64,000 nt of DNA. Origin: an uncultured bacterium. Lineage in GTDB: Bacteria > Acidobacteriota > Thermoanaerobaculia > Multivoradales > JAHZIX01. The position numbers and the translations under genes were made by a program. The DNA lies in contig CBDUPA010000012.1 in NCBI GenBank assembly GCA_965368975.1, positions 64,001 through 128,000 of the forward strand, written 5' to 3'. The notes under the pieces were generated by a model. That model did no database searches, had not been told where the DNA came from, and saw only the letters and a program-made list of their open reading frames with translations. Shown piece after piece: positions 4,146 through 30,212 of the stretch (position 1 is the first letter of the stretch; each line of letters starts with the position of its first letter).

Positions 4146-4787
4146 TCACTCCAGCGCCGCTACCGCCTCCTGGATCTGACCCTGGTGCCGGCGGTCGTGC
4201 TGGGCTAGCAGGCGCAGCAGGCCGGCGACCTTGGTGAAGCCGAACAGGGGGCTGTAATAGAGGCCGGCGTCGAGGTCGAGGCCGGTGTCCTGGCCCAGGT
4301 GGTCGAGCTGGTCGAGGCTGGCGCGGAGGTCGGTGAACAGGTCGGCGCGGGGACGCCGGGGGCGGGGGCGGAGCATTTCGGGGGCCTGGGCGCGCACTTG
4401 ACGCTGACCGAGGAAGCCTTCGCGCACGGTGGCGGGAACGCCGAGGTTGAAGAAGAAGAAGGCGCCTTCGAAGGGCAGGCGGAAGGGGAGGGGGAGGCGG
4501 CCGATGACGGGGGCGCCGGCTTGACGTAGGTTGCGGTAGACGTAGGGGGGACGGCCTTGGCGCTGCTTTTCGATGACGGCGCCGATCTCGCGCTGGAACA
4601 TCTGGTCCGCGCGTACCAGGTGGTCGAGGACCTCGCCGACCGACCAGCGGCCGGGCTTGGGCACGGCGTCGAGCTGCTCCTGGCTCAGGTGCTCGGTGAG
4701 GGCAATGTTCTGCTCGCGCACGGTGCGCAGGTCGGCAATGGCGTCGAGGTAGCTGCGTGGGGCGTGGTGCATCTCGTGGGTCCTCAC
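4146..4787 (-). CDS. DinB/YfiT-like four-helix putative metal-binding protein; last gene of the operon
   Basis: WSVGEVLDHL near the N-terminus and HDRRHQGQI at the C-terminus form the DinB_2 His pattern; GTGA overlap with the upstream gene. Confidence 0.82.
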   Translation of the reverse strand: MRTHEMHHAPRSYLDAIADLRTVREQNIALTEHLSQEQLDAVPKPGRWSVGEVLDHLVRADQMFQREIGAVIEKQRQGRPPYVYRNLRQAGAPVIGRLPLPFRLPFEGAFFFFNLGVPATVREGFLGQRQVRAQAPEMLRPRPRRPRADLFTDLRASLDQLDHLGQDTGLDLDAGLYYSPLFGFTKVAGLLRLLAQHDRRHQGQIQEAVAALE

Positions 4788-6085
4788 ACGGTTCGACCGT
4801 CCAGCACGAACGCCGGCAGCGACGCCGCGTCGAGCCAGTCGGGGATCTGACGCCAGGTCTGTAGCGAGCCGAGGATGGTCTGGTAGTGCTGCTGGAAGTG
4901 CAGGAAGAGGAACTCCTTTTCCAGCTGCTCGGTGGAGATGCAGAAGCGCTTGCTGGCCTGGCCGAGGGTGGCCACGTCGAGCAGGCGCAGGGCGGGGAAG
5001 ACAGGGTCGAAGCGCAGGCCGCTGCCGGGTAGGCTGTGGTAGAAGCGCTTCCAGGGTTGCAGGAAGCGTTTGACGCTGGGCGGGCCGAAGGTGTTGGCGA
5101 ACTGGAAGCCCCAGGCGAAGGGGTCGGCGGCCAGGCGTAGCATGGCGCGCGGGCGTTCGGCGACGAAAGTGGCGCGGACGGTGACCTGGCCGCTGGCGTG
5201 GACGGTCCAGACGAGCAGTTCGAAGGCGGGTTCGAGTTCGCCTGGGCCGTAGCCGAGGGCGGAGGGTTCGGGCTTGCGCACGAAGGCGTAGCCGAAGCCG
5301 TAGCGGCCCAGGATGCCGGGCTCGGGGTGGTGTTCGTCGACCACGAAGTCGCGCGACAGGGCCAGGTAGTTGAACTCGCTCAGCGGCAAGCTGAGGCTGG
5401 GGCCCTGGGGGCCGAAGGGTTGGAGCTTGAACTGGAAGTCGTAGATCGGGTTGCGCAGTACCAGCAGGTCGAGATCGCTATCGCTAGTATTGGCATCGCT
5501 GGTGCTGGTACCGCCGGGGCCGAGAGTGCGCAGGTCGACGATCGCGTCGCGACGCGTTTCCCGGAACCGGTGCCACAGGCCGGGGGTCGCGTGGGTCGGG
5601 CCGCCGCGGTAGTAGAGCTGCTGGAAGCCGAAGCCTTGACGCTGGGCCGGGTCGGGGATGCACTGGCTGAGCAAGCCGAGGCCCGGGGGTGTCGGTGCGT
5701 GCGGTTCGGGGGTGCGCTGGGGCTGGCGGAAGTCGGAGACGCGCAGGAAGTAGTGCAGCACGAACTCGCGCACCTGCTCGGCCATCCACTCGGCGGCTTG
5801 CTCGACGCTCTCGCCGCCGCCGCGCGCGGTCTTGGGCTCGTCGTAGAACATCTCCTGCACGTTGCCGTTGACCGCGATCGTGCCGCTGCTCAGCGGTGCC
5901 CGGTCGAAGAAGCCGAAGCTGCGGTCTTCGGGGCGGTTGAAGACGTAGGTTTCGGGGTAGGTGCGGGCGTAGCTGCCGGCGGCGTCGGTGTGGCGCCACC
6001 AGTCGAGCAGTTCCCTGCCCGAGCGCAGCGCTGCCGGCACGCGCTCGAGGAGCTCGGACTCTTCGGGGGCCAGGGGCGTGGTCAT
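4784..6085 (-). CDS. Hypothetical protein (433 aa), operon member
   Basis: Protein-like composition, 7-bp gap to the upstream gene, 4-bp overlap with the DinB gene; no motif recognised. Confidence 0.85.
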   Translation of the reverse strand: MTTPLAPEESELLERVPAALRSGRELLDWWRHTDAAGSYARTYPETYVFNRPEDRSFGFFDRAPLSSGTIAVNGNVQEMFYDEPKTARGGGESVEQAAEWMAEQVREFVLHYFLRVSDFRQPQRTPEPHAPTPPGLGLLSQCIPDPAQRQGFGFQQLYYRGGPTHATPGLWHRFRETRRDAIVDLRTLGPGGTSTSDANTSDSDLDLLVLRNPIYDFQFKLQPFGPQGPSLSLPLSEFNYLALSRDFVVDEHHPEPGILGRYGFGYAFVRKPEPSALGYGPGELEPAFELLVWTVHASGQVTVRATFVAERPRAMLRLAADPFAWGFQFANTFGPPSVKRFLQPWKRFYHSLPGSGLRFDPVFPALRLLDVATLGQASKRFCISTEQLEKEFLFLHFQQHYQTILGSLQTWRQIPDWLDAASLPAFVLDGRTV

Positions 6086-6092
6086 GGTCGTC

Positions 6093-9000
6093 CTACGCTT
6101 TCGTGCGCTGTGCCGGCTTGAGATCGACGTTGGAGGTGACGCCGCCGTCGACCTGGATGCCGACGAAGGGAGCGTCGTCGGCCCGGGAGATCTGGACCGA
6201 GACCTGGTGGATGCCGCCCGGATCTTCGCTCCAGGTGCCGAAGCCGCTGAAGCTGAGCACGTCGGGTTCGCTGCCGTCCCTGGCCTCCAGCGTGTGACTG
6301 AGGTCGAGCCAGGTGAGGGTGCTCAGGCGGAAGGTGCCGCCGTGGGTGTGGTTGCTGTACTCGAACCAGGCTTCGGGGGCGCGTCGCGGATCGTGGGGAA
6401 TCGACCAGCGGTAGGAGAATTCGACGCCGGTGGCGGGGGAGCGCGCGCGCTGGACGTCGCCCCGGCTGCAGTCGTTCGGGTCGTGTGTGAGTGTGGGCGC
6501 GGCTGCAGGCGTCACGGCGCGCACGCTGCGGAAGGGGTCGAGGCGCGAGTGCTCGCGGATGAGGAGGGGGGGGCGGCCGCCGGGGGCCGCGGAGGGGAAG
6601 TGGAAGCCGGCCGGGTAGGGCAGGAAGACGTCGCCGTTCCAGCGCAGCACGAGGGTGCCGTCGGGGCCGCGTTCGAAGCAGCCGGGCCCCTGGTAGTTGA
6701 AGGAGTCGGCGGGGGTGCAGGGTTCGACCTGGATCAGCTCGGCGAACAGGGATTGCACGACGTAGCCGCGCCACAGCAACGGGCCGGCGATCTGGCCGCT
6801 GGGCAGGTGCAGGGTGGCGGTGCAGACGTTGAACGGATCGTCGGGTGAGGACAGGCCGCTCTGGTCGTAGCTCAGCTTGGGGAAGTGCATCACTGTGTCG
6901 AAACCGCCGCCGCCGCGCGAGACGCCAGGGGGCAGGAAGGGTGGCACCACTGGTGCATCGTCGAGCAAGCCGCCGGCGGGTAGGATCTGCAGCACGACGG
7001 GCACTGTGTTCCCGCAGCGCGCGCCGAATTGCACGCGCACGCGCGCCAAGAGGTGACCGCGACCGGTGGCGGGGCCGCCGAGCTCGGGGGCGTGCAGGTC
7101 GAAGGCGTCGCCGAAGCAGGTCTCGTGGCCGAAGGCGCTCAGCTCGCAGACGCGGTCGCAAGGCCAGTCGTCGACCGAGACGCGAGAGTTGGTGCTCGGG
7201 GTGGCGCGGGTGGTGAGGTAGATCCGCGGGTGCAGGGAGGTGCCGCGGGCGACGAAGCTGGCGGCCTGCAGATCCGGGGTGGTGAAGGGGAGGGCGAAGC
7301 GCACTGGTTGTTCGGCGCTGCCCGCTCCCAGCGGCACGAACATGTGAGCTGCCACCTCGACATCGAAGCCGTCACCCTGGGCCCCAGCTCCCGGGCGCGG
7401 CGTGAAGCGGGCCCAGCTGGAGCCGCCGTTGGGTTGGCCGGGGAAGGTGAGCAGGGCCGCGCGCACGGGCGGCGGCAGGTCGGGGTTGAGCGCCATCAGG
7501 CAGTGCAGGGCGGTGTTGGTGTTCTGCAGGTTGTAGTGGAAGTTGTAGACGCTCCCGGTGCGCGTGTCCAGGACGCCGCCGGAGACCAGGCCCGGCAGGT
7601 CCTGCACCTGGGTGTGCTGCACCGGCATGCGGAACAGTTGGGGGCCGCTGAGATCGCCGTCGGTGCCTTGCAGGCCGCTGGGATGACGGATCTCGAAGCG
7701 CGCCTTGCCCTCGGCGTCGGGCGGCTCGATGCGCACGTGGATCTTGCCCGACAGCGCGCTAGTGGTAGGCAGGAAGCCGCCGAAGAAGGTGCGCTCGCAC
7801 AGCCCGAAGGGCGGGAAGCCGGGCAGCAGGGGCGGCTCGCCGGGGCAGTCCACCGGCCGCAAGGCGTCGCCGACGCAGCTCAGTTCGGGGTTGACGTCGA
7901 GGGTGGCTTCCCAGCCGCCGGCCGGGATCTCGAGGGGCTGGAAGTCGGGGTCGTCGTAGGACGGATCGTCCAGGCCGCCGGCCGGAATGCCGACGGCCGG
8001 GGTGCACTGCTGCTTGCCCGGCTGTAGCGACGGATAGGTGGTCTGGATCGGCGGCTCCTGCAGGGGCTGTGCGGACGGGGGCAGCGGTGGAATGCTCGGG
8101 ATCTCGTCTGCCGTGCGGGGGTGCAGGAAGGCGTCGGTTGCCGGCTCGCCGGGGGCCAGCTGGGTGAGGGTGTTGACGTCGCTCGCCGCGATCTCGTCCA
8201 CCGGCACCGCGGTCACGGCAACGCTGCTGAACTCCTGCCCGATCCAGGCGACCATCTCGGCGGCCAAGTGGGCGTTGAGAGTCGGGCCGGGATAGGCGCC
8301 GTTGAGCAGGTAGAGACCGCCCAGGTAGCCGGCGTCGAGGTGGTGGCCGGTCGTCCCCCGTGTGGCCTGCAGGCCTTGACGCGCGACTCTCTCGACGGTC
8401 GCGTGCAGGTCGAAGACGTGGGCGCCGGCGCGCTCGGCCGCCGCGCGCACGGCGGTGTTGGCATCGGCGATGGTGGCGCGCACGGAGGCCGCCAGCGCGG
8501 CCGGCAGGATGGGGGATTCCGCCAGGGGGCCGACTTGGCGCGCCATGGTTTGGTAGCCCATGGCCCACAGGCCGGGCAGGTGGACGAGGTCGTCAGCGCC
8601 GACGCCCCAGTGCCGGTGCAGGAACTCCGGCGTGGTCTTGAGGATCGCGGCGGCGGTCTCCGGCGTCGAAAAGTAAGCGCTGTCGAGCGGGTCGGGGACG
8701 GTGGTGACCAGAGTCGTGGTGGCCGCGGGCAGCGTTTGCAGCAGGCGGGTCAGGAGCTGCTCGACCTGGTGGCCGGTGGGGAGCTGCGTGGCGTCTTGCT
8801 CGACCGCCGCGCGCAGTAGCTGGTCATAGCCGAGGCAGACCAGGGCCAGGGTCGGCTGGCGGTCGTGGGCGTATTCGGCCTGGGTGCGACCGTGGTCGGC
8901 GCCCAACTGCAGGTCGGGCAGGCCGAGGATGAAGTTGGCCAGGGTGGTGCGGCTGCAGGCGCGGTCGATCAGCGGTGCTCGCGGGCGCAGGTCGAGGGCG

Positions 9001-9611
9001 TCGGCGAAGCTGAAGCCGGGCACGGAGAGGTTGCCCAGGTCGCTGGAGCGCGGTAGCTCTTCGAGCACGGTCGACTGGCGGATGCCGGGCACGATGGCGG
9101 GCTGCGGCGGTAGGCCGATGACGTCGCCCAGGCCGGGTGGCTGCAGCAGCGGCTGGCGCAGCTCGGTGCCGATGGCCTGCGCCAGCAGGGCCGGCAGGCT
9201 GGTGGCCTGGAAGGAGCCTTCGAGCGCGAAGTGGCCCATGCCGGCGCTGAAGCCGTCGCCGAGCACGACGAAGGTCGAGGCGTCGAGACCTCGCCCGGGA
9301 CGCTGGCGCTCGGTGGCCGGGCTGAAGGCGTCGAAGACCCCATCGACGATCGAGTCCTGGACCTTCTCCGCCAGCTCGGCGGCGCGCTCGAAGGGGCCGT
9401 CCAGCTGCTCGGCGGCGCGCTGGCTGAGCTCATCCAGCTCTGCGCTGGACGCGGGTGGGCGCAGTCGTAGCAGGTTGGCCATGCCGCGCGCGCCGAGCAG
9501 GGTCATCGACCAGGCGAAGCGACCGCCGGAGCGCAGCAGGCGGGGCAGGTTCTCGAGCGGTCCGTCTAGGGGGCCGTCGGGCAGGTTGTTGGATTCATTC
9601 GGGCGTTTCAT
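6093..9611 (-). CDS. Large multidomain protein: N-terminal amphipathic module, degenerate SGNH/GDSL-like domain, beta-rich C-terminal domains (~1172 aa)
   Basis: ATG 9611 with a GAGGAG RBS. FVVLGDGFSAG..NLSVPG..LNGAYP mirrors the GDSL blocks (GDS..G..DGxHP) with the catalytic residues substituted. Confidence 0.8.
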   Translation of the reverse strand: MKRPNESNNLPDGPLDGPLENLPRLLRSGGRFAWSMTLLGARGMANLLRLRPPASSAELDELSQRAAEQLDGPFERAAELAEKVQDSIVDGVFDAFSPATERQRPGRGLDASTFVVLGDGFSAGMGHFALEGSFQATSLPALLAQAIGTELRQPLLQPPGLGDVIGLPPQPAIVPGIRQSTVLEELPRSSDLGNLSVPGFSFADALDLRPRAPLIDRACSRTTLANFILGLPDLQLGADHGRTQAEYAHDRQPTLALVCLGYDQLLRAAVEQDATQLPTGHQVEQLLTRLLQTLPAATTTLVTTVPDPLDSAYFSTPETAAAILKTTPEFLHRHWGVGADDLVHLPGLWAMGYQTMARQVGPLAESPILPAALAASVRATIADANTAVRAAAERAGAHVFDLHATVERVARQGLQATRGTTGHHLDAGYLGGLYLLNGAYPGPTLNAHLAAEMVAWIGQEFSSVAVTAVPVDEIAASDVNTLTQLAPGEPATDAFLHPRTADEIPSIPPLPPSAQPLQEPPIQTTYPSLQPGKQQCTPAVGIPAGGLDDPSYDDPDFQPLEIPAGGWEATLDVNPELSCVGDALRPVDCPGEPPLLPGFPPFGLCERTFFGGFLPTTSALSGKIHVRIEPPDAEGKARFEIRHPSGLQGTDGDLSGPQLFRMPVQHTQVQDLPGLVSGGVLDTRTGSVYNFHYNLQNTNTALHCLMALNPDLPPPVRAALLTFPGQPNGGSSWARFTPRPGAGAQGDGFDVEVAAHMFVPLGAGSAEQPVRFALPFTTPDLQAASFVARGTSLHPRIYLTTRATPSTNSRVSVDDWPCDRVCELSAFGHETCFGDAFDLHAPELGGPATGRGHLLARVRVQFGARCGNTVPVVLQILPAGGLLDDAPVVPPFLPPGVSRGGGGFDTVMHFPKLSYDQSGLSSPDDPFNVCTATLHLPSGQIAGPLLWRGYVVQSLFAELIQVEPCTPADSFNYQGPGCFERGPDGTLVLRWNGDVFLPYPAGFHFPSAAPGGRPPLLIREHSRLDPFRSVRAVTPAAAPTLTHDPNDCSRGDVQRARSPATGVEFSYRWSIPHDPRRAPEAWFEYSNHTHGGTFRLSTLTWLDLSHTLEARDGSEPDVLSFSGFGTWSEDPGGIHQVSVQISRADDAPFVGIQVDGGVTSNVDLKPAQRTKA

Positions 9612-10806
9612 CGAAGCTCTCCTCGTCCACCAGTAGGCAGCCCGCTCGCTCACAGTCGTGCTCCACCGTGTCTTCGAAGCCTTGACGCATCAGGCGCTCG
9701 ATGCGGCGGGCGTCGAGATCGAGCAGGCCGACGGCGCCGCCGAAGTCCTCGCGCGGGGAGAAGCGGTGGATGGTCAGCGCGTGGAGGTCGCGGTGGCGCC
9801 GGGCCATGTGGCGGTACAGCGGACCCTCGGTGTCGCCCAGCTCGCGCGCGCGGCGCAGCCAGGCCAGGGCGAGGTTGATGCGCCGCGCGGCGGCGATGTC
9901 GAGGCGGATCTTGGCGGCCCAGGCGATCTGCTGCGAGCGGTAGAGGGTCTCCAGCGTGTTTTCCAGGTGTGACAGCGGCACGGCGCTGATGTCGGGGTCG
10001 AGGTAGACCACGAACAGCTCGCGACCGCCGGCACGGATCGCCGGTTTGAGCGGTGTATTGAGCAGCACGCCGCCGTCGATGTAGGGCTGGGAGCCGACGT
10101 CGGCGGGCGGGTAGAAGCCGGGTAGGGCGCTCGAGGCTTCGATCGCCAGCGGGCCCAGGGTGTCGCTCATGTTGCTGTTGTCGAAGATGCGTAGCTTGCC
10201 GGTGGCCCAGTTGGTGGCGACGATCCGCAGCTGGCGGCTGGAGCGGCGGATGGTCTCGAAGTCGATGCTGCGGCGGATGGTGCGGCTCCACGGCTCGCGC
10301 GAGACGAAGCTCGAGAAGTTGACCAGCTCCGCCGAGCGTTGCACCAGGCCCTCATCGTGACTACTGGCCGCGTGCACTAGGCGCTGCAGGCCTTCCCAGC
10401 CCAGTGACGCGCTGTCGCGCGCCAGGCGCAGGGCGGTCGAGAAGGGGTTGGGGAAGTAGCAGCGTGGGTCCAGGTACTCGGTCGGGGAAGCCTTGATGCG
10501 GTAGGCACCGTTGCCGCACGAGCCGGGGCGCTCGGCCAGCTGTTGGCGCCACACGTCGGCCAGGCGCCCGGCCGAGGCGTTGCCCAGATGGTCCCAGTTG
10601 GCGGCCAGGAAGGCGGCGTTGAAGGAGCCGATGGAGGTGCCGGCGAAGATGCCCGGGTCCAGTGACTGGTGACCGGTGGCAGACGAGCGGCCAGCTGCCA
10701 GGGCCTCGACGACGCCGACTCCGTAAGCACCGTCGGCACCGCCGCCGGAGAGCACCAGCGCTTGCGCGGTCGAGGAACCCGTGGAAGAACTAGTCGAGGC
10801 GCTCAT
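9595..10806 (-). CDS. Patatin-like phospholipase / acyl hydrolase
   Basis: LVLSGGGADGAYGVG (oxyanion loop), GTSIG (nucleophile elbow), ASSALPG, YIDGG; ATG 10806 overlaps the upstream stop. Confidence 0.93.
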   Translation of the reverse strand: MSASTSSSTGSSTAQALVLSGGGADGAYGVGVVEALAAGRSSATGHQSLDPGIFAGTSIGSFNAAFLAANWDHLGNASAGRLADVWRQQLAERPGSCGNGAYRIKASPTEYLDPRCYFPNPFSTALRLARDSASLGWEGLQRLVHAASSHDEGLVQRSAELVNFSSFVSREPWSRTIRRSIDFETIRRSSRQLRIVATNWATGKLRIFDNSNMSDTLGPLAIEASSALPGFYPPADVGSQPYIDGGVLLNTPLKPAIRAGGRELFVVYLDPDISAVPLSHLENTLETLYRSQQIAWAAKIRLDIAAARRINLALAWLRRARELGDTEGPLYRHMARRHRDLHALTIHRFSPREDFGGAVGLLDLDARRIERLMRQGFEDTVEHDCERAGCLLVDEESFDETPE

Positions 10807-11825
10807 GGCAGGTACCTGAACAGTTCGGGGGCGGGGACGTCCTGGCGCAGGGCCGGCGCGGCGCTCGACAAGCCCCAGTGCCGCCAGCGCGCGTCGCCGG
10901 CATGGCGCAGCAGGGCGTGGAGCAGGTCGTCGCGGCCGTTGGCGCGCTGCCACAGGTGCAGTGCGCTGTGCACGCCGTGGCTCCAGGCCGTTGCTGCGTC
11001 CCGGTTGGCCGTTGGGTTGGGCGTGAGGTTGGACAGGGTGGTGGGTAGGGCGCGTTCGAGGATCGCCGGCTGGCGCAGGTTGACCAGCGTAAGCGCCCAG
11101 GCCAGGCCGCTGAGCGCGTTGAGCCGCGCCAGCGGATGGGGGGCGTCGCGCTGTGCGCGCGCCAGTGCCTGCTCGACCGAACCCACGTAGGGCAGGGCAT
11201 GGAAGGGGGAGAAGTAGAGGCCGCGGCCGTAGCCGTGCCACAGGTAGGGCACCAGGTGGGGGGCCAGGCGGTGCAGGTCGCGGTCCGCGCGGTGTAGCAG
11301 GCGAGCGTCACCGTCGGCGCGCAGGCCGAGCACCAGGCCGCTGGCTTCGAAGGTGACCTCGGCCCAGCCGGGGTGAGAGTGCCGTCGCGCGGCATCAAGG
11401 AGTTGCTCGAAGGGCTCGTCGAAGCTAGGCAGCGCGGCTGGGGCGCGCAGCGTCCGCGACGCCAGCTGCATGCCGAGACCTGGGTGCACGCAGGCCAAGG
11501 TTGCGCTCGGTAGGCCGTCGCGACCCAGGGGCGTGGACTCCAGGTGCTCGGCAGCCAGCCAGCCCAGCCCTTCCCAGGTCCACAAGCGACGCCAGGGCGC
11601 TAGCTCGTTGGTGCTGTGCAGGGAGCGGCTCAGGTCGCCGCGCCAATACGGGTCGGCGTGGCGGAAGAAGGTGAAGGCCTGCACCCGGTTTTGGAACTCC
11701 TGCCACACCGCCTGCTGCCCGGGCAGACGCTTGGCGGCCAGCGCCCAACCCTCGGCCATCGCCAGCGGTAGCAGGCTGACGGCGCGTGGCGCCAGGCCGT
11801 CGAGGCTGGGCAGCAGGTCTCTCAC
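10803..11825 (-). CDS. Helical hypothetical protein, paralog of 20149-21453 (loosely DUF1702-like)
   Basis: GTG 11825 overlaps the upstream TGA. Motifs WEGLG, HPGLGMQLA, EASGL, WHGYGRGLYF, SGLAWALTLVN are shared with the paralog. Confidence 0.75.
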   Translation of the reverse strand: MRDLLPSLDGLAPRAVSLLPLAMAEGWALAAKRLPGQQAVWQEFQNRVQAFTFFRHADPYWRGDLSRSLHSTNELAPWRRLWTWEGLGWLAAEHLESTPLGRDGLPSATLACVHPGLGMQLASRTLRAPAALPSFDEPFEQLLDAARRHSHPGWAEVTFEASGLVLGLRADGDARLLHRADRDLHRLAPHLVPYLWHGYGRGLYFSPFHALPYVGSVEQALARAQRDAPHPLARLNALSGLAWALTLVNLRQPAILERALPTTLSNLTPNPTANRDAATAWSHGVHSALHLWQRANGRDDLLHALLRHAGDARWRHWGLSSAAPALRQDVPAPELFRYLP

Positions 11826-13018: not shown

Positions 13019-13020
13019 CG

Positions 13021-14076: not shown

Positions 14077-14111
14077 TGTCGCGTTCTCCTGCGCAGCGTG
14101 TTGTGGGGGTG

Positions 14112-15775: not shown

Positions 15776-15787
15776 CGCAGCCTCCTT

Positions 15788-16984: not shown

Positions 16985-17024
16985 GGCGAGGCCTCCTTCC
17001 GGGAGTCGGAGAGCGAGTGCGGGA

Positions 17025-17573: not shown

Positions 17574-17589
17574 GGATCTCTCGCGGTTC

Positions 17590-17994: not shown

Positions 17995-17997
17995 GGC

Positions 17998-18279: not shown

Positions 18280-18295
18280 GTGGGATCCTTTACAT

Positions 18296-20152
18296 CTAAG
18301 GGCGCGTGATCGCGCGCAGCAGCCAGGCACCGAGGACCAGGAAGAGGACGGCCGTCCCGGGCTCGGCCCACGCCGGGTCGACGCCGAGGTCGGGCAGGCG
18401 CGGTGCCAGCAGTGCCACGGCCGCCATCAGCAAGCCCAGGCACAGTACGGTGGTGAAGGTGTCGCTGCGCTGCTCGCCGCGGTCGGCGACGCGCAGGTCG
18501 AGGCGCAGGGGGTGGTCGGCTTCGCCGGACAGCAGGTGCAGCAGCCGGTCGAGCTTCTGGGGCATCTCGAGCAGGCCCGAGAGGTTGGCTTCCAGGGCCT
18601 GGCCGAAGACGGCGGGGCCGGCGAACTGGCGCAGTCGTCGTACGCCGGTGAGCCAGTGCAGGTCGTCGAGCGCGCGCCGCAGTGGGTCGCCCGTAGGGTC
18701 GAGATGGCGGCTGTCGGCCGCGCTCTCGAACAAGCCTGTGTAGAGACTGGCGAGGGCTGGTGACGGCTGCAGGCCGAGCTCGCGCAGCAGGCGCCAGTGC
18801 AGCACCAGCAACTCGGCCAGCGTGTCGCGCTTCTCGCTCCAGCCGCCGTCGCGGAAGGGGACGAGCTGGCGCAGGCGCTGGCGCACGCGACGCTCGTCGA
18901 TCTGAGCCTTGCCGCGCGTCGACCCGACGGCGGTCAACTCGCCGGCAATGGCGTCATAGGCCTCTTCCGGCAAGTGGTCGGCGAGCTGCTGCAGGTAGGC
19001 ACAGAGCCGTGGCAAGGCCGCTGTGCCGAGGTGGCAGCAGCGGCCGGCGAGCAGGGCGAGGCGGCCGTCGCGCAGCTCGGCCCACGCGGCGTCGAGGGGG
19101 GCATGACCGGTGACCAGGGCCTGCTGCAGCCAGGCCAGGTGCAGGCGGCGCGCCAGGTCCCGGGCCCGGGGCGAGCTGGCCCGTGATGAGCCAGCCCGTG
19201 ATGAGCCAGCCTGTGATGAGCTAGCCGCGGGCTCGTCCCCGTCGCTCGACGGCGGGCGCAGGTCGAAGTGGGCGACCGGCAGCGCACCCAGGATCAGCAG
19301 GCGCGGGGTGGCGAAGAGCACGCGCGGTACGGCCAGCAGATCCGCGTCCGCCAGTTCGGCGGCCAGCTGGCGCAAGCTGGCACCCTCGGTGCGCAGGTCG
19401 AGGTCTTGTTCGAGGCGCGCCTCGAAGTCGCGCAGCAGGCGTTGGAAGGTGTCCCTGGCTGGGTTTGTGGCCTGGAACACGCTCCACCCGTTCGTTCTGT
19501 CCGCGTCGGTGGGGTCGAGACGCCTGGCGAAGGCGGGCTGCAAGTACTGCAGCTGCGGCAGCTCGTGCTGCGCCGCCGCTGCCAGTCCCGGGCGGCGCAG
19601 CCGCAGCCAGACCTCGACCGCCGTAGCGTCTGTAGCGGTCGCGTCCGCGAGCACGACGCCCGGGTGGAGCCTGGCGCGGTAGTCGTCGCTGCTGCGGCCA
19701 CGGCGCACGGGCTCGGGGTCGAAGTCGGCGAACAGCTCGGCTGCCGGACGCTGCAGCTCGCGCGCGGCTCGTTGCACGGGGTCGCTGTTCGTCGGCGGGA
19801 TGGGTGTTGGTGGTAGGAGTGGCGGGGGCTCGCTCACCGGAACCCGTGCGGCGCGCAGTTGCAGCACGTCGTCGATCGGCAGCACGTCGGGACGCGACCC
19901 CAGGTAGTCGGTGAACAGTTGGAAGGTAGGGCCCAGGTCGCTGGCGGCGTCGATCAGGCGCTGCGCCCAGAGGCCGTCCGCGGCCTGGGAGTCGGTCGGG
20001 TTCGCGTCCGAGGAAGGTGTCGGGGCAGCCCCTCCGAACCAGCCCTGCTGCTCGAACCAGCTCGATCTTTCGAACAGGCCGTGCTGGGCCAGGCAGGCCT
20101 CGACGCGGTGACGAGCGTCGTCGCGGTGCACGCGGTGACCGGCGCGCCTCAC
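18296..20152 (-). CDS. ABC1/UbiB-family pseudokinase with two C-terminal TM helices
   Basis: GTG 20152 overlaps the upstream TGA. LGPTF..YLGSRPDVLP, LRRPG, LDLRTEG and VPRV are retained; VAVK, HADxHxxN and DFG are absent. Confidence 0.72.
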   Translation of the reverse strand: MRRAGHRVHRDDARHRVEACLAQHGLFERSSWFEQQGWFGGAAPTPSSDANPTDSQAADGLWAQRLIDAASDLGPTFQLFTDYLGSRPDVLPIDDVLQLRAARVPVSEPPPLLPPTPIPPTNSDPVQRAARELQRPAAELFADFDPEPVRRGRSSDDYRARLHPGVVLADATATDATAVEVWLRLRRPGLAAAAQHELPQLQYLQPAFARRLDPTDADRTNGWSVFQATNPARDTFQRLLRDFEARLEQDLDLRTEGASLRQLAAELADADLLAVPRVLFATPRLLILGALPVAHFDLRPPSSDGDEPAASSSQAGSSRAGSSRASSPRARDLARRLHLAWLQQALVTGHAPLDAAWAELRDGRLALLAGRCCHLGTAALPRLCAYLQQLADHLPEEAYDAIAGELTAVGSTRGKAQIDERRVRQRLRQLVPFRDGGWSEKRDTLAELLVLHWRLLRELGLQPSPALASLYTGLFESAADSRHLDPTGDPLRRALDDLHWLTGVRRLRQFAGPAVFGQALEANLSGLLEMPQKLDRLLHLLSGEADHPLRLDLRVADRGEQRSDTFTTVLCLGLLMAAVALLAPRLPDLGVDPAWAEPGTAVLFLVLGAWLLRAITRP

Positions 20153-21453
20153 GGTGCACCTCCGCCGACGGTTGCGTCTCGACCTGCTGGCGCGTCCCGA
20201 TCTGCTGGCGCGCCTCGATATGCTGGCGTGCCGCGCTCGCGGGCCGCTCGCGCCAGCTGGACCACCACCGCGCTGGCGCCCGGACCTCTGCCGCCGCTGG
20301 CGCCACCCTCGGCGTGGGCCAGCAGGGCACGCACCGGCTCGATCAGCCGGACGTGCCAGGGGCTCGAGGTGACCGCTGGATGGTCGAGGAAGGCGTCGAC
20401 CTCGGGGCCGGCGGGGGCCAGGCTGCGGCGCAGGAGCAGGGCCGAGGCCACACCCTCGACGAAGGCGGCGTCGACCGCTTCGGGGTCGTGGCGCACGAAA
20501 CGTTCGAGCACGAGAGGTCGCTCCAGGTTGACCAGGGTCGCGGCGTAGGCGATCCCGGCACTGCCGTTGTCGAGCGCCAGGCGATGCGGCGCTTCGTGCC
20601 GCAGGCGGCGCAGGGCGGCGTCGACAGTGCTGTAGCCCGGTAGCAGGTGCAGTGGCAGGAAGTAGAGCGCGCGCCCGACGCCGTGCCAGTAGACGACACT
20701 CACTGACGCTCTCGCGGCTGCCGGGTCCTGGCGCGCCAGCGCATCGCAAGCGCGGCCGAGGTCGGCGGTCAACTCGGGGAAGAAGCAGCGCACGGTGAGA
20801 CCGAGGGCCTCCACCGCCGCGTCCTCGTGCGCGGTCTCGGCGTTGGCCTGGCACAGCGCCAGGAAGTCCTGCAGCACGCGGCGCGCGCCGTCGTCGTCGC
20901 CCGGCTGGAGAGCGGTGCACAGGTGTTCGGCCAGTGCCATGCCCATGCCCAGGTGCGCCATGATCAGGGCGCCGTCGCTCAGCCGCAGGTCGTGCAGCAG
21001 ACCGCGCGGTGCGGGGTCGTGGGCCAGCACGGCGGCGGCGTGGCCGTGACCGAGACCCTCGAGCAGCCAGGGCGCGTGGCTCGAGTCCAGGCCGAGAGCG
21101 TGCTCGGCGGCGACTTCGAAGACCTCGCGGCGCGCGGCCCGTTCATGAGGGCCGAGGCTGCTGCTGGCGCGGCGCACCAGGGTGTAGACCTCGAGCTTGT
21201 CGAGCAGTTCCTGGCGCACGGCGGTGCCGTCGGCGCTGGGGGCCAGGGCGCTCAGGGCGGCGTGGGTGTCGCTGGCCAGGCGCTCGCCGAAGCGGCGCCA
21301 GGTCGTCGCGGACAGGTCGCCGGGCAGCAGGTCGAACCACTCGTTCTGGAAGTCGTCGCCGAGCCGGAAGAGGAGCTGCGGCAGCGGCGCCATGCGCCGG
21401 CGCGCGCGCAGGGAGAAGGCGTCGAGGGCGGCGGCGGCCGTGCGCAGGATCAC
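20149..21453 (-). CDS. Helical hypothetical protein, paralog of 10803-11825 (loosely DUF1702-like)
   Basis: LEGLG, HLGMGMALA, EALGL, WHGVGRALYF, AGIAYAATLVN; GTGA overlaps at both ends. Confidence 0.78.
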   Translation of the reverse strand: MILRTAAAALDAFSLRARRRMAPLPQLLFRLGDDFQNEWFDLLPGDLSATTWRRFGERLASDTHAALSALAPSADGTAVRQELLDKLEVYTLVRRASSSLGPHERAARREVFEVAAEHALGLDSSHAPWLLEGLGHGHAAAVLAHDPAPRGLLHDLRLSDGALIMAHLGMGMALAEHLCTALQPGDDDGARRVLQDFLALCQANAETAHEDAAVEALGLTVRCFFPELTADLGRACDALARQDPAAARASVSVVYWHGVGRALYFLPLHLLPGYSTVDAALRRLRHEAPHRLALDNGSAGIAYAATLVNLERPLVLERFVRHDPEAVDAAFVEGVASALLLRRSLAPAGPEVDAFLDHPAVTSSPWHVRLIEPVRALLAHAEGGASGGRGPGASAVVVQLARAARERGTPAYRGAPADRDAPAGRDATVGGGAP

Positions 21454-23102
21454 GCCAGGCTCCGCAGGTTCGCCGCCAGGGCCAGGGCGGTGGCGGTGGT
21501 GAAGGTGAGGGCGGCGGTGAGCAGGTTGAGGCCGAGCGCCGGGTCGGGCAGGGAGGCGGCGACGGCGGCGCCACCGAGGGTGGCCAGCGCCAGCTGCACG
21601 GCGCGCGTGCGCCGCTGCTTGCCGGGCTGTGACCGCAGGTGGACGCGCACCGGCACGTCACCGGTGTTCAGGCGGTCGAGCAGGCGTGCTCCGCGCGCCG
21701 GGCCGTCGTGCAGCAGCTGCGCCGAGGCGGTGGTCCAGTCGAGCAGAGAATCGCTGCTCAGCAAGCGGCCTCGGTACTGCCAGCGCAGCAGACCGGCGCA
21801 GCGCTCGGCCAGGTAGGCGCTGAGGTCGAAGTCAGGCTCGAAGCGGGTGACCAGGCCGTCGATGGCGATCGAGGAGCGGATGTACTTGATGACGTTGCGC
21901 TCGGGCATGACGTTGGTGCGCCGGGACAGGTGCAGCATTTCGGTCATCACGCGCGTGAAGTTGGCCACCAGGCGTGGCCCGTCGGGGCCGTCGGCATACC
22001 AATCCGCCGACAGCGTGTCGAGGCCGGCCCGGAAGCCCTCGAGGTCGGACCCGTCGTCCCAGATGGTGACGCGCAGGAATTGCTCGTGGAACGTGTCCAT
22101 GTCGCCGCGGGCGAGCGCCAGTGTCATGCGCATCAGGTGGCGGCGGGCGTACTCGTTCATCACGCCGGTGATGCCGAAGTCGATGTAGCCGACCACGTTG
22201 CGGTCCAGAATCATCAAGTTGGCCGGGTGCAAGTCGGCGTGGTAGACGCCCAGCTCGAAAGCGTTGGCCAGGAAGTTGTCGATCACGTGGCTCGCCACCT
22301 GCCGGCGGTCGAACCCGCGGCTGGCCAGGCGGCGCGACAAGACCTCGTCGCCGTGCTCGCGGGCGCGCAGGTAGTCGAGCAGGGTGACGCCGTCCAGGAA
22401 CTCGACCACCAGCGTTCGGCGCGTGGTGTAGCGGTCGTAGACGCGCGGCACGTACTGGCCCGCGCGCCCCTGGATCCGCTGGCGCAGCGTCTCGGAGCAG
22501 CGCGCTTCGTGACGGTAGTCGAGCTCTTCACGCGTCCAGTCGACGAACTCGCGCAGCGGCTCGAGTAGCCAGTACAGCGGCGCCAGGCGCAGCCCACGGA
22601 TGGTGGCCATCAGCGCCAGCATCATGCGGATGTCGCTCTTGAATTCACTGTCGACGTTGGGCCGTTGCACCTTGACCGCGACCTTCTGCCCGTCGAGCCA
22701 GGCGACGTGGACCTGTCCCACCGAGGCGGTGGCCAGCGGTTCGCGCTCGATCGAGTCGAAAACCTCGTCGGGCGCGCGCCCGAGTTCTTCTTCGACGATG
22801 CGCTCGACGTCGTGCCAGCCGAACGGGTCGACCTGGTCGAGCAGCTTGAACAGGGCGTTGCAGTACGCTAGCGGCAGGATGTCCGGTTGCAGGGCCAGCA
22901 TCTGTCCCAGCTTCACGAAGGTACCGCCCAGGTCTTCGAGCGCCAGCCGCAGGCGCTCGGGACCCGGCAAGGACGGCCCCCAGCGGCGCGCCGCCCAGCT
23001 GGGTCCGCGTTGATGCAGCAGGTGCCCTAGGAGATGCGCCAGTCCATGGCGCAGGGCGATGCCGGCGACATGCACGAAGCGGCGCGGGGTGGTGGCACGC
23101 AT
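21450..23102 (-). CDS. ABC1/UbiB/AarF atypical kinase
   Basis: LGGTFVKLGQML, PLATASVGQVH, VAVKVQRP, ELDYRHEA, YHADLHPAN, IDFG; C-terminal hydrophobic helices. Confidence 0.95.
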   Translation of the reverse strand: MRATTPRRFVHVAGIALRHGLAHLLGHLLHQRGPSWAARRWGPSLPGPERLRLALEDLGGTFVKLGQMLALQPDILPLAYCNALFKLLDQVDPFGWHDVERIVEEELGRAPDEVFDSIEREPLATASVGQVHVAWLDGQKVAVKVQRPNVDSEFKSDIRMMLALMATIRGLRLAPLYWLLEPLREFVDWTREELDYRHEARCSETLRQRIQGRAGQYVPRVYDRYTTRRTLVVEFLDGVTLLDYLRAREHGDEVLSRRLASRGFDRRQVASHVIDNFLANAFELGVYHADLHPANLMILDRNVVGYIDFGITGVMNEYARRHLMRMTLALARGDMDTFHEQFLRVTIWDDGSDLEGFRAGLDTLSADWYADGPDGPRLVANFTRVMTEMLHLSRRTNVMPERNVIKYIRSSIAIDGLVTRFEPDFDLSAYLAERCAGLLRWQYRGRLLSSDSLLDWTTASAQLLHDGPARGARLLDRLNTGDVPVRVHLRSQPGKQRRTRAVQLALATLGGAAVAASLPDPALGLNLLTAALTFTTATALALAANLRSLA

Positions 23103-23106
23103 CGTC

Positions 23107-24789
23107 TCAGGCTCCAGCCTGGTCCAGAATGGAGCCGAAGAAGATCGACTTGCGGCGCTCCAGCATCTCGGCGATCGCGGCCTCCATGCGCTGGCGCACT
23201 TCCTGGCTCAGCTGGCGGACCAGCTCGGCGTCGTCGGCAGCGGCGGGGCCCTGCGCGTCGAAGTACTCGGCGACCGGCACGGGTTGCAGAAAGCGGGTGT
23301 GCCACTTGGAGGGCAGGGGCACGGTGCCCATGGTCGGGGTAATGGGCAGGTAGGGCCATTCGCTGAAGCGCTTGAACCAGCTCCAGTCGATGCGGCCGAA
23401 GATCGGGAAGATCTCGGCACTGCCGACGGTGACGAAGGGCACGATCGGTGCGCCGTGGCGTAGCGCCGCCTTGACGAATTCGTCGCGCCCGAAGCGCCCC
23501 AACTTGTAGGCGTCGCGGTAGGGCGTGAAGGCGCCGCGGATGCCCTCGGGAAAGATGGCGAGGAGACCGTCGTTTTCGAGGATGCGGGCGCTGTTGTCGC
23601 GGCAGGCGTGCAGGCCGCCGCAGCGCAGCATGTAGGGCGCCAGGAAGGGAAACTTGACCAGCGTCGGATGGATCAGGAAGCGAGGGTAGCGCTGCAGCTC
23701 GCGCACCAGCAGGTGCAGCATCATGACGCCGTCCCAGGGCTGGTGGCCGCGGTGGACGCCGGCGAGCACCGCGCGCCCGCTGCGCGGCACGTGCTCCAGG
23801 CCCGCGACCTCGATGCGCCACCAGGCGTCGTGCAGGAAGCGGAAGAGCGTCTTGCCCAGGCGGCCGATGTACGCCGGGTCCATGCCGAAGTCGTCGTACC
23901 GGTTGGGCAGCGGCGACGCCGCGGAATTCTGCTGTGGGTCGCCCCGCGGCCCGGCGAAGGTGCGGGCGACCTCGGCGCTGGAGATGGCCGGTTCGACGCC
24001 CAGCTCGCGCCGCAACGTCTCGCCGCCGGCGGTCCAGCTGTGGCGCAGGTAGTCGCTGGCGTCGGCGGAGCGCGGCTGCAGCGGCGACGGCAGGCGACGG
24101 CTACCGGCGTGCCGTAGCGCCTGGCGCAGCGGTACGGCGACCGGCGGCACGACGTGGTAGACACCGTTCTGCCCGCGCTGCACCCGGCGTTCGAGCAAGG
24201 CTTCGAGCGCGGCGGCCAGGTCGTCGAGACTGAGCAGTTGCACGGTCGGGTCGAATCCGACAGGCACGACAGCCCAGCGGCCGGGGTTTCGTCCGCTGAG
24301 CAGACGGGAGACGAGATCGTGGGCACCCGGCACCGGCGTGGGCGCCGGGCGCAGAATGGACAGGCGCGCGTCGGCGGCCGCGGCCAGTTCCGCGGCGCGC
24401 GCTTCCAAGGCCCGCCAGGCGTCGGCGATCGGATTGCGCTTGCGCGCCGCGCCGCGGTACTGCTCGCTCACCAGGCCCGCGTGGTGGTGGCTGGGAGCGT
24501 GGACGGCGGTGCTCGAGATCAGCACCAGGTGGCGCACCCCTGGTGGTAGTTCGTCGCTCGCCAGCGGTCCGCGCTGGCGCGCGGCGTCGAGCACGGCGGG
24601 GTCCCAGCACGGCGGCTGCGCCCACACGAGGGTGCTCGCCTCGGGGACCTCCTGTGTCGCTGCCGACTCGGGCGCAAACCACTGCCAGCTACCGCCCTGC
24701 CGCGCTTCCAGCGCTCGCTGCAGGTGGTCGCGCCAGGCACCACGAGGGGCGCTGATGGCGACCGACGGACCGGCTGTGCCTTGGCTCAT
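23107..24789 (-). CDS. Fusion of a degenerate extended-SDR/epimerase-like domain and an LPLAT/PlsC-DGAT-like acyltransferase
   Basis: N-terminal LVLISSTAVH, ILRPAP, VQLLSLDDLA; C-terminal DDFGMDP, WWRIEVAGLEHVP, VHRGHQPWD (HxxxxxD), IFPEG, APIVP. Confidence 0.88.
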   Translation of the reverse strand: MSQGTAGPSVAISAPRGAWRDHLQRALEARQGGSWQWFAPESAATQEVPEASTLVWAQPPCWDPAVLDAARQRGPLASDELPPGVRHLVLISSTAVHAPSHHHAGLVSEQYRGAARKRNPIADAWRALEARAAELAAAADARLSILRPAPTPVPGAHDLVSRLLSGRNPGRWAVVPVGFDPTVQLLSLDDLAAALEALLERRVQRGQNGVYHVVPPVAVPLRQALRHAGSRRLPSPLQPRSADASDYLRHSWTAGGETLRRELGVEPAISSAEVARTFAGPRGDPQQNSAASPLPNRYDDFGMDPAYIGRLGKTLFRFLHDAWWRIEVAGLEHVPRSGRAVLAGVHRGHQPWDGVMMLHLLVRELQRYPRFLIHPTLVKFPFLAPYMLRCGGLHACRDNSARILENDGLLAIFPEGIRGAFTPYRDAYKLGRFGRDEFVKAALRHGAPIVPFVTVGSAEIFPIFGRIDWSWFKRFSEWPYLPITPTMGTVPLPSKWHTRFLQPVPVAEYFDAQGPAAADDAELVRQLSQEVRQRMEAAIAEMLERRKSIFFGSILDQAGA

Positions 24790-24840: not shown

Positions 24841-25146
24841 CTAGGCGGCGCTCTCGGCGGCCATCGCGGGTGCAGCGGCCGTCGCAGGTTCAGCAGTGGA
24901 CGCCGTTCCCGCGTTCTTCAGAATCAGGTCGACGGCATCCTGGATCGTGCGCAACTGCTGCAGCCGTTCCTCCGGCAGCCCCAGCTGGAAGGCGTAGTCG
25001 ATGTCGATGCCGATCTCGAGCAGCGACAGGGAGTCGAGGTCGAGATCGTCGAGAAACGAATCCTGATCGCCGATGGTTTCGGGGTCGATGCTGGTGATGC
25101 TGGCAATGATCTCTTTGACCTTGCTCCGAACTTCAGTTACGTCCAT
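24841..25146 (-). CDS. Acyl carrier protein
   Basis: GAGGAG RBS then ATG 25146; acidic protein with the DLDLDSLSLLEI phosphopantetheine-Ser motif and TIQDAV. Confidence 0.92.
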   Translation of the reverse strand: MDVTEVRSKVKEIIASITSIDPETIGDQDSFLDDLDLDSLSLLEIGIDIDYAFQLGLPEERLQQLRTIQDAVDLILKNAGTASTAEPATAAAPAMAAESAA

Positions 25147-25229
25147 AGCAATTCTCCTCAGCCGGTTCCCGGGCCACATGGCCCACAGCGGGCACTCCGC
25201 AGAAGTCTCTTGCAGAGAAGGTGCTGAAT

Positions 25230-25258
25230 ACTACCAATTGCTGAAGGTTTGTGGTAGT
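25230..25258. promoter_or_regulatory. Inverted repeat ACTACCA-N15-TGGTAGT, candidate operator upstream of the ACP operon
   Basis: Perfect 7-bp dyad in an AT-richer intergenic stretch between the luxR-like gene and ACP. Confidence 0.35.
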
Positions 25259-25347
25259 CGGTTGACGGGATGACGTCGGACCAGGCGTCAGCCAGCCGGT
25301 GGACGCCAACCAGGGGACACCCGCCGCGCGCGCCGCGCGCACTGTGA

Positions 25348-25659
25348 TCACAGCTGTCTCCGGTCGAGTTGCAGGGCCACGGCTACCACCCGCACGACCA
25401 GTTGCACCCGACTATTGACCGCTAGCTTGCGGTAGATGCGTTCGAGATAGGTGTGCACGGTGTGCGGCGAGATACCCAAGTGCTGCGCGATGGTGATCTC
25501 CTTGCCATCGTCGAAGACGCCGCGCACAATCTGGAGCTCCCGCGGCGACAGCGCCAAGATCTCGGCCAACTCGTTCCACTGCGCGATGGAAAAGATCTCG
25601 TGACCCTCTGGCTCCCAAGGCTGCGATGGGTCAGGTAGGACCCTCTGTGCCTTGGCCAT
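25348..25659 (-). CDS. Stand-alone LuxR/GerE-type HTH regulator
   Basis: LSPRELQIV..IAQHLGISPHTVHTYLERIYRKLAVNSRVQL; AGGAGG RBS; no receiver domain. Confidence 0.92.
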   Translation of the reverse strand: MAKAQRVLPDPSQPWEPEGHEIFSIAQWNELAEILALSPRELQIVRGVFDDGKEITIAQHLGISPHTVHTYLERIYRKLAVNSRVQLVVRVVAVALQLDRRQL

Positions 25660-30186: not shown

Positions 30187-30212
30187 CGGCGAGCTTCGCC
30201 GAGGACGTCGAC

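Follow-up and report, generated by a model that had tools for sequence, protein, structure and literature searches.

In the UbiB/COQ8 metabolons, represented by the bacterial Ubi complex and the mitochondrial coenzyme Q (CoQ) synthome, and likewise in plant plastoglobules, UbiB-family proteins sit beside the membrane in the company of lipid-binding barrel-like, small helical and scaffold-like proteins. Here we describe an operon from an uncultured member of the Acidobacteriota (Thermoanaerobaculia; Multivoradales; JAHZIX01) that, by analogy, may work in the same manner in handling a very hydrophobic substrate. It occupies the minus strand from position 25659 down to position 4146 of a stretch of 64,000 nucleotides (positions 64,001 to 128,000 of contig CBDUPA010000012.1, GenBank assembly GCA_965368975.1), referred to throughout as the window. 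Unlike the UbiB/COQ8 metabolons, it contains no quinone-biosynthesis methyltransferases or hydroxylases, its substrate would come from an acyl carrier protein (ACP), and its duplicated protein families (A to D below) gave no homology to UbiJ, UbiK, COQ4, COQ9 or fibrillins in the Pfam, NCBIfam and PDB sequence searches made. From gene content and synteny, we read the operon as the distal accessory part, or module, of a conserved Acidobacteriota supercluster of ~35-40 kb, probably for an unusual lipid of fatty-acid-like type, the chain-building core of which lies in this genome on other contigs.

Three kinds of described bacterial cluster invite comparison with this supercluster. Anammox Cluster I, the putative ladderane cluster KustE3603-3608, comprises, in the available text of the preprint that describes it, amxACP, amxFabZ, amxFabF2, amxFabFmut, a phytoene-dehydrogenase homolog and a B12-radical-SAM protein, and its ketosynthase (KS) heterodimer has been described along with the complex formed with its ACP (bioRxiv 10.64898/2026.05.19.726425). 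On that description it and the Acidobacteriota loci each have an ACP of their own, a KS paired with a second KS-type protein whose catalytic site is altered, and a flavoenzyme resembling phytoene desaturase (PDH-like hereafter). In contrast to anammox Cluster I, the loci add an HMG-CoA-reductase-like (HMGR-like) reductase, a lysophospholipid acyltransferase (LPLAT) and the whole accessory module; their host belongs to the Acidobacteriota, not the Planctomycetota; nothing hints at ladderanes; and neither FabZ nor a radical-SAM enzyme turned up by Pfam in the scanned share of the open reading frames (ORFs) of the window and of loci L010-L013, L016, L017, L019 and L033. The same scope applies to the ketoreductase (KR) and dehydratase (DH) results below.

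Aryl polyene and xanthomonadin-type clusters of Gram-negative bacteria, whose composition is taken in part from two papers (PMC8358021, PMC8041823), resemble the supercluster in joining a type II KS and chain-length factor (CLF) and their own ACP to an LPLAT-type acyltransferase (AT), in a halogenase-like flavoenzyme (here in the linked core locus), and in a product presumed to be lipid-anchored. Unlike them, the loci show no KR or DH, aryl starter enzymes, glycosyltransferase or LolA/MMPL exporter, and the HMGR-like, PDH-like, UbiB, patatin and family A to D proteins have no counterpart in aryl polyene clusters as so described. The myxobacterial elbB-elbE ether-lipid cluster, reported in Acidobacteriota, likewise combines an ACP-bound chain with an AGPAT-type acyltransferase (bioRxiv 10.64898/2026.06.23.733905). 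The operon differs in having no ElbD-like multidomain enzyme with an adenylation domain; the other gene content given in the available text is unrelated, the words patatin and ABC1 do not appear there, and identity with the elb cluster was rejected on this mismatch of gene content. Judged by its gene content, we rate the module as a type II fatty acid synthase/polyketide synthase (FAS/PKS)-like lipid cluster in kind, distinct from anammox Cluster I, aryl polyene and elb clusters, structural organelle operons and PADLOC systems. A full-text literature search, which covered few subscription journals, found no paper describing the gene set.

A tightly coupled operon

The ORFs of the operon are numbered g01 to g20, from a LuxR-type regulator (g01) through the ACP (g03) to a DinB protein (g20; Table 1). 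GC3 (third codon position G+C) frame analysis and the ORF listing agree on an unbroken minus-strand chain of genes, in a window of ~70% G+C. Eighteen genes run from ACP to DinB, and of the 17 junctions between them, read directly from the sequence, six are 4-nucleotide (nt) ATGA or GTGA overlaps and nine are gaps of 2-40 nt; the junction of the patatin with the giant protein that follows it (g17/g18) is a 17-nt overlap, the sole one of that size, and that of ACP with AT (g03/g04) is a 51-nt gap, the widest. The LuxR gene lies 168 nt upstream of the ACP gene, and the 72-amino-acid (aa) ORF between them (g02, 25133-25351) is probably not a real gene. No terminator-like site was found in a scan of the minus strand from 3800 to 23700, and a single promoter-like site was found upstream of g01 (25762-25735, minus strand). 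Tight coupling, the lack of an internal terminator-like site and the one promoter-like site together suggest that 4146-25659 is an operon. DinB is coupled to its neighbour by a 4-nt overlap yet stands outside the conserved gene set; when the window proteins were searched by tblastn, it gave no match in any related locus.

Pfam recognises the regulator, the ACP, the AT, two ABC1 proteins (g05 and g07), the patatin and DinB (E-values in Table 1). Eleven of the 20 scanned ORFs match no Pfam family at E<=0.01, an NCBIfam search of the window ORFs returned nothing beyond the Pfam matches, and no KS, adenylation, phosphopantetheinyl transferase or transporter domain was detected by Pfam in the 20 ORFs. 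Most of what is left sorts by blastp into four paralogous families: A, in two copies (g06 and g16); B, in three (g08, g09 and the N-terminus of g18; 1e-18 and 3e-7); C, in three (the C-terminus of g10, g13 and the N-terminus of g14; 2e-40 to 2e-21); and D, in three (g11, g12 and g15; 9e-33 to 2e-46). None of the four matches Pfam or NCBIfam. The original prediction for this DNA had described 18 co-oriented, tightly coupled genes that start at ACP, end at DinB and are preceded by a LuxR gene, with four internally duplicated families (3+3+3+2 copies): the ORF and junction reading bears out the former and blastp reproduces the latter exactly. Of the lipid-associated enzymes that it listed, Pfam upholds the ACP, the LPLAT, both ABC1 proteins and the patatin, whereas the GDSL-like protein is a weak match without its nucleophile serine.

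A rare module beside a widespread core

Eight genomes carry the module: the present one (G000), G003, G027, G030 and G430-G433. Locus L010 is the same DNA (100% identity) as contig C13 of G027, and L012 as contig C23 of G003, and each was counted once. Searching with the 20 window proteins by tblastn yields the conserved order AT, ABC1a, B, A, ABC1b, C, D, D, C, g14, D, A, g19, patatin, g18, with copy numbers that differ between lineages; a pattern scan for family C found six loci with Acidobacteriota-type labels, save one labelled Deltaproteobacteria. In every related locus found, across the eight genomes, the unknown families are syntenic with ACP, AT, ABC1 and patatin, so that the misgiving recorded at the outset, that the unknown families might part from the lipid genes in other genomes, falls away. 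The module is nevertheless sparsely distributed: within the order, four of 41 genomes have family D, counting the present one, and of 401 sampled across the phylum this genome alone has it.

The chain-building genes that the window lacks stand directly upstream of the module, on the same strand, in three of its relatives (G027, G431 and G432). In G027 they are contiguous, in the order ACP, KS, CLF-like, HMGR-like, PDH-like and then AT. The complete chromosome of G431 has ACP, KS, CLF, HMGR, halogenase-like, RPE65, ACP, HMGR, PDH, AT and ABC1a; G432 has ACP, KS, CLF, CLF, HMGR, PDH, two FG-GAP/UnbV genes, AT and ABC1a; and in G003 and L013, ACP, HMGR and PDH lie upstream of AT. The present genome holds the same genes in pieces. 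Contig C3 carries LuxR, LuxR, ACP, KS, CLF-like, HMGR-like, halogenase-like and RPE65 genes, with a KS 69% and an HMGR-like protein 60% identical to their G027 counterparts, and contig C8 carries a PDH-like gene (61% identical). The window ACP is 60% identical to that of C3, the pair corresponding to the two ACPs of the G431 locus, and its identity to ACPs from relatives is 47-53%. The helix-turn-helix (HTH) of g01 shares 37-39% identity with the LuxR genes at the head of locus L011 and of the core locus on C3. The apparent lack of a synthase core thus results from a cluster that is split in this genome. As first described, the operon had no synthase core; this is true of the window, where the 20 ORFs contain no KS and CLF-like pair in the cluster of the ACP, but not of the supercluster, given the contiguous cores of G027, G431 and G432 and the genes on C3 and C8. 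The further suspicion that a characterised pathway with its synthase elsewhere might explain the operon proved half right: the synthase is elsewhere, but the pathway is not a characterised one.

The core also exists by itself. G021, which has no module, carries ACP, KS, CLF, HMGR, PDH, a g04-like AT (50% identical), halogenase-like and RPE65 genes, and the presence of this AT in its core cluster assigns the AT to the basal pathway. KS is present in all eight module-carrying genomes and in 30 of 41 genomes of the order. From this distribution of genes we conclude that the basal lipid cluster is widespread and the window module a rare add-on, here separated from its core. The best PDB matches of the C3 KS and CLF-like proteins are 9s5h_B (3.4e-141) and 9s5h_C (7e-60), respectively; 9s5h scores well above ordinary FabF (~1e-80 to 1e-89), and the ishigamide KS 6kxd comes next (3e-95). 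Entries 9s5h and 9s5i are probably the anammox Cluster I FabF pair, the code itself not appearing in the available text of the preprint.

Elsewhere in the genome, a second HMGR-like match (39% identity, one in-frame TGA) lies at G000:C3:309890-311053, at a distance of 60 kb from the core genes. Many open frames with a KS, 1,400-14,804 aa long, occur on contigs C1, C2, C5, C10-C12, C14-C17, C19, C25 and C26, two of them on the window's own contig but outside the window; the genome has a large PKS/non-ribosomal peptide synthetase repertoire.

Recognisable enzymes, intact and degenerate

Some of the recognisable proteins retain the residues of working enzymes and others have lost them. The ACP has its DSL motif at residues 49-51 and qualifies as a dedicated ACP, and the AT conserves the motif FPEGI(R/N/H)G, with a His and an Asp at an atypical spacing, behind a 320-aa N-terminal domain without a Pfam match. 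All five orthologs examined for g05 keep the VAVKVQRP lysine, the REELDY glutamate and the motifs HADLHPANL and DFG, as befits a UbiB/ABC1 kinase. The other ABC1 protein, g07, does not have the motif set of that family: HxDxHPxN and DFG are absent from all six orthologs and the Lys is kept in one of the six. It is alone among the 20 proteins in having C-terminal hydrophobic 19-mers with a Kyte-Doolittle score of at least 1.6. The patatin (g17) has GGGADG at residue 21, GTSIG at 56 and DGG at 244, that is, both the oxyanion box and the Ser/Asp dyad.

The 1172-aa giant g18, whose start at 9611 agrees with a public gene call of the same length, begins with a family B module (hhalign probability 99.1) and ends in a part without a Pfam match. 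Between them lies a Lipase_GDSL_2-like domain (E 0.0015; 19.5 and 21.6 bits, where the cut-off is 32.9) with Block I reading GDG(F/L)(S/A)AG or GEGLAAG in three of three orthologs, so that Gly replaces the nucleophile Ser. Since the score falls below the Pfam threshold and the Ser is missing, g18 is, on its sequence, not counted as an active SGNH hydrolase.

Uncharacterised families and their fusions

Family D was modelled as g12 with AlphaFold2 (AF2) and a 53-sequence alignment. The model is all-beta (confidence in Table 1), and Foldseek against the PDB places it with the plant dirigent proteins 6ood, 6ooc and 8th2 (probability 1.00, target TM 0.53-0.61), the Diels-Alderase AbyU (8qfu, 0.99) and the cyclase Tsn15 (6nnw, 0.97); with 7r5z included, the matches to dirigent, allene oxide cyclase and AbyU barrels range in probability from 0.84 to 1.00. 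Each target spans about half of the model, which is consistent with a weak internal repeat seen by blastp. By this model, family D is predicted to consist of tandem dirigent/AbyU-type, eight-stranded barrels, as the earlier guess at barrel cyclases had supposed in respect of the fold. Among named Atlas clusters, a language-model search puts it closest to AOC_like, Dirigent and DUF3224, weakly so (0.75-0.80), and at E<=0.01 none of g11, g12 and g15 matches Pfam Dirigent (PF03018) or AOC_like (PF18678). Unlike the described barrels, family D has two to a 400-aa chain, is 9-15% identical to the matched chains, comes as three paralogs per operon and is found fused to other domains, either SnoaL or the C-terminal domain of g14 (g14C). 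The g12 type numbers 55 database proteins, itself included, of which none is named and none has a Pfam match.

A profile of family A finds 816 representative proteins at E<=1e-3, with invariant E, H, E, WHG and R positions in alignment A5. The AF2 model of a relative is all-alpha (pLDDT 89.9) and has no significant Foldseek match in the PDB. A kinship of family A with enediyne UnbL/DUF1702 was considered and dropped for want of Pfam support. Family B is a module of ~80 residues (alignment A3, 18 members) with amphipathic helices of hydrophobic moment 0.45-0.59. Its stand-alone proteins often end, after a low-complexity linker, in GWGP(V/M/I), with GWGP seen in L010, L011, L012 and L013, and this tail may be a short docking peptide. 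Complex prediction for g08 with g09 gave a score of 0.02 against a mark of 0.32, which speaks neither for nor against pairing, and the ten longer family B proteins found all lack a Pfam match. The layout of g10, a family-B-like part followed by family C, is matched over residues q1-179 in L013 and q1-181 in L014.

The g19 family comprises 513 database proteins; none of the 120 listed carries a Pfam match, and the six organism-bearing names among those 120 are all of Acidobacteriota. A g19 profile matches eight of the 401 genomes of the phylum. Homologs 38-39% identical stand alone in G072, G383 and G366 (L047-L051), from another family of the phylum, where none of the other 27 query proteins matched in the surroundings; weaker paralogs of ~350 aa also exist. 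Families A, B, C and g19 match nothing consistent in Pfam, member by member, or among PDB sequences, g14C has no Pfam match, and hhalign detects no kinship among families B and C, g19, g14C and the g18 C-terminus. A deeper paralogy of g19, g14C and the g18 C-terminus with families A and D was also discarded, as hhalign was null (best probability 9.9, g18 C-terminus with family D).

In relatives, these families are joined to one another and to enzymes. Of the best 150 family A representatives, 86 carry a fused family B module; family B is also joined to alpha/beta hydrolases in L013 and L014, and to unassigned domains in G003; family C is fused to family A in one of the same 150. The domain g14C stands at the C-terminus of family D in eight of 54 g12 homologs and also in L011, and a SnoaL-family D fusion occurs in L013. 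Optional neighbours include SnoaL, SRPBCC/AHSA1, VOC/glyoxalase, cupin-FGE, MBL and peroxiredoxin proteins, the classic tailoring folds of polyketides and lipids, and paired FG-GAP/VCBS proteins with UnbV_ASPIC lie in or beside the supercluster of G003, G027 and G432 and are absent from the window. Together the fusions and neighbours argue that the parts associate physically and that the chemistry acts on a small, hydrophobic compound. A further domain of ~100-170 residues, likewise absent from the window, recurs in the SnoaL-family D fusion, in an alpha/beta hydrolase tagged with family B and in two small ORFs of other genomes (Table 1).

A proposed machine and its rivals

Our preferred reading, to which we give a probability of roughly 0.45, is that the operon encodes a membrane-tethered multiprotein machine that would cyclise or shield the ACP-bound chain of the core and move it into or out of glycerolipids. 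The proximal core (ACP, KS with its CLF-like partner, HMGR-like reductase and PDH-like flavoenzyme, often with a halogenase-like flavoenzyme and an RPE65-type oxygenase) would make the chain on its ACP, and the second ACP of the system (ACP2, g03) would deliver it. The tandem barrels of family D could then cyclise or shield it, the LPLAT (g04) would esterify it to a glycerolipid acceptor, and the patatin might supply the lyso-acceptor or release the product. The active UbiB protein g05 and its membrane-anchored, degenerate partner g07 would shift the lipid between membrane and complex, and family B would act as a shared helical docking tag, gathering family A, family C, hydrolase-like proteins and g18 into one assembly.

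Several observations weigh against this proposal. No product, lipid or complex has been observed: sequence and models show the anatomy, folds, motifs, synteny, split and fusion network, and from these the substrate, the sequence of steps, the parts played by the barrels and UbiB, and the physical assembly are inferred. The core works without the module, as the distribution of KS (30 of 41 genomes) against that of family D (4 of 41) indicates, and the adjacency of the two in three genomes may reflect a general clustering of lipid genes. No KR, DH or enoylreductase gene was seen in the loci scanned. In g04 the conserved His and Asp occur as HRGxxPWD, with six residues between them, in place of the usual HX4D. 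Dirigent-like barrels may be binders and not cyclases, and some parts, g07 and the SGNH-like domain of g18 among them, seem to have no catalytic function, which suits a structural complex no less than it does a pathway. Lastly, the g19 homologs that stand alone in three genomes show that not every part is tied to the cluster. A bolder form of the proposal, which we consider doubtful, would make the operon a new kind of bacterial cytoplasmic lipid-handling assembly, a functional counterpart of plastoglobules or the CoQ synthome, with family B as its docking system, a UbiB/pseudo-UbiB pair as membrane anchor and pericyclase-like barrels that cyclise the product of an anammox-type KS/CLF into a lipid. 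Its building blocks would be families without described relatives: the all-alpha fold that Foldseek does not match significantly in the PDB, the tandem dirigent-like barrels and two small adaptor domains.

The module could instead be a protein-coated neutral-lipid inclusion of the plastoglobule or droplet type, with families A to D and the degenerate enzymes as its coat or scaffold, family B targeting the surface, and UbiB, AT and patatin filling and mobilising the store. The two UbiB/ABC1 proteins, the patatin, an AT with a secondary DAGAT match, multi-copy barrel proteins, the amphipathic helices of family B, one N-terminal module common to many different proteins and the presence of pseudo-enzymes would all suit such an inclusion, as would the RPE65-type oxygenase and flavoenzymes of the linked core, which we take to resemble the plastoglobule proteins CCD4 and NDC1. 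We nevertheless think it unlikely, as the 20 ORFs contain no WS/DGAT, phasin or other known droplet domain, the fold of family D matches dirigent and AbyU enzymes and not fibrillins, the tight link to a dedicated ACP/KS/CLF core suits a specific product better than bulk storage, and the extras found in relatives are small-molecule tailoring folds. The comparison originally drawn with bacterial microcompartments and gas vesicles gained no direct support either, the 20 ORFs holding no shell or coat protein domain, encapsulin included (Pfam, E<=0.01).

A more conventional explanation would be a cluster for a diffusible polyketide-like product, with barrels, SnoaL and SRPBCC proteins as cyclases and with AT and patatin either forming a lipid-linked precursor and setting it free or shielding the producing cell. 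The kinship of the KS/CLF with the ishigamide KS and the 9s5h pair, the AbyU/Tsn15 pericyclase-like fold, the SnoaL, SRPBCC, VOC, cupin and FG-GAP/UnbV extras, and a genome rich in giant KS-bearing frames are all as such a cluster would have them; but with neither an exporter or thioesterase nor a KR or DH among the genes scanned in the window and the loci, two UbiB-type proteins and an LPLAT that point to a membrane lipid as end product, and many members without catalytic residues, we hold it to be unlikely. Very unlikely, in our view, is a system set off by stress or phage to remodel or damage membranes without any role for KS/CLF, its patatin and hydrolases acting as effectors and its UbiB-like proteins as sensors. 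A TIR-STAND-TPR gene does lie directly upstream on the opposite strand, and the patatin (4e-9) and g05 have weak PADLOC matches to phospholipase effectors and kinases, respectively. That gene, however, is outside the conserved synteny, eight of ten scanned proteins have no PADLOC match, and a dedicated ACP and AT and a link to the core in three to five genomes do not fit; identification as a defence system was rejected, the g05 and g17 matches being generic, at 4e-9 or weaker, and none coming from a system-specific model.

Flanking genes and feature coordinates

The flanks of the operon are unrelated to it on both sides. Downstream of DinB, by 68 nt, lies the gene for a large helicase of Lhr type (window 1-4077, minus strand; DEAD, Helicase_C, WH_Lhr and DEAD_assoc), which overruns the start of the window. 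Divergent to the LuxR gene, a 1001-aa protein (25840-28845, plus strand) joins TIR, AAA_16 (STAND-type) and TPR domains in a defence-like architecture, followed on the same strand by an FHA-GGDEF diguanylate cyclase (28858-30186), a RecN/SMC-like ATPase (29892-32012) and a protein that weakly matches SpoIVB peptidase S55 (32670-34814). Over 42000-64000, in the second half of the window, the G+C content falls from ~0.70 to 0.60-0.65, and this DNA may be foreign.

Table 1. Genes of the operon (positions in the window) and features of related loci (positions in the locus named).
Feature	Position	Strand	Basis
g01, short LuxR/GerE HTH regulator, 103 aa	25348..25659	-	Pfam GerE 1.9e-15
g03, dedicated acyl carrier protein ACP2	24841..25179	-	PP-binding 8.2e-11; DSL, serine at residue 50
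g04, LPLAT-type acyltransferase (C-terminal half) with 320-aa N-terminal domain	23107..24789	-	Acyltransferase 3.2e-13, DAGAT 3.9e-6
g05, UbiB/ABC1 atypical kinase, catalytic motifs intact	21450..23102	-	ABC1 5.3e-59
g06, family A copy 1, all-alpha	20149..21453	-	blastp against g16 3e-18
g07, degenerate UbiB-like, two C-terminal transmembrane segments	18296..20152	-	ABC1 5.3e-8, N-terminal half of model only
g08, family B stand-alone helical module, 93 aa from conserved MRELT start	17998..18279	-	blastp against g09 1e-18
g09, family B stand-alone module, C-terminal GWGPV motif	17590..17994	-	blastp; alignment A3
g10, weak family-B-like N-terminus and family C domain	17025..17573	-	blastp against g14 2e-40, against g13 2e-24
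g11, family D copy	15788..16984	-	blastp against g12 9e-44; fold inferred from g12 model
g12, family D copy, structure modelled	14519..15775	-	AF2 pLDDT 92.6, pTM 0.92
g13, family C stand-alone domain	14112..14522	-	blastp; alignment A2 with WPRQDREYEKRKLE motif
g14, family C domain and 250-aa C-terminal domain g14C	13021..14076	-	blastp
g15, family D copy	11822..13018	-	blastp against g12 2e-46
g16, family A copy 2	10803..11825	-	blastp; alignment A5
g17, patatin-like phospholipase with catalytic dyad	9595..10806	-	Patatin 1.8e-29
g18, 1172-aa giant: family B tag, SGNH-like domain, ~690 aa unassigned	6093..9611	-	hhalign; Pfam below cut-off
g19, conserved 433-aa protein	4784..6085	-	no Pfam, NCBIfam or PDB sequence match
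g20, DinB_2 superfamily protein	4146..4787	-	DinB_2 7.8e-14; GTGA overlap with g19
FG-GAP/UnbV_ASPIC pair	L019 11394-16387		
FG-GAP/UnbV_ASPIC pair	L016 2162-6375		
FG-GAP/UnbV_ASPIC pair	L053 5356-10440		
Extra domain of ~100-170 residues	L013 12341-14767 (residues ~172-348)		
Extra domain of ~100-170 residues	L015 143-652		
Extra domain of ~100-170 residues	L020 8997-9554		
Extra domain of ~100-170 residues	L013 10544-12298 (residues ~174-268)		

Significance

Acidobacteriota are abundant and hard to study, and a widespread, uncharacterised core of KS/CLF, HMGR-like and desaturase-like proteins offers an experimental handle on them. Nature provides this core in two versions, with and without an add-on of 20 kb, and so a ready comparison for the function of the add-on. 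At least seven of the families and domains involved carry no annotation (A, B, C, D, g14C, g19 and the g18 C-terminus), among them one with hundreds of relatives (816 representatives) and one with a confident fold that has no significant Foldseek match in the PDB. Should the barrels prove to be cyclases of a lipid chain, their reaction would be new to lipid chemistry, with a bearing on the use of anammox-type KS/CLF outside anammox bacteria; and if family B is a docking tag, it would represent a new principle of metabolon assembly in bacteria.

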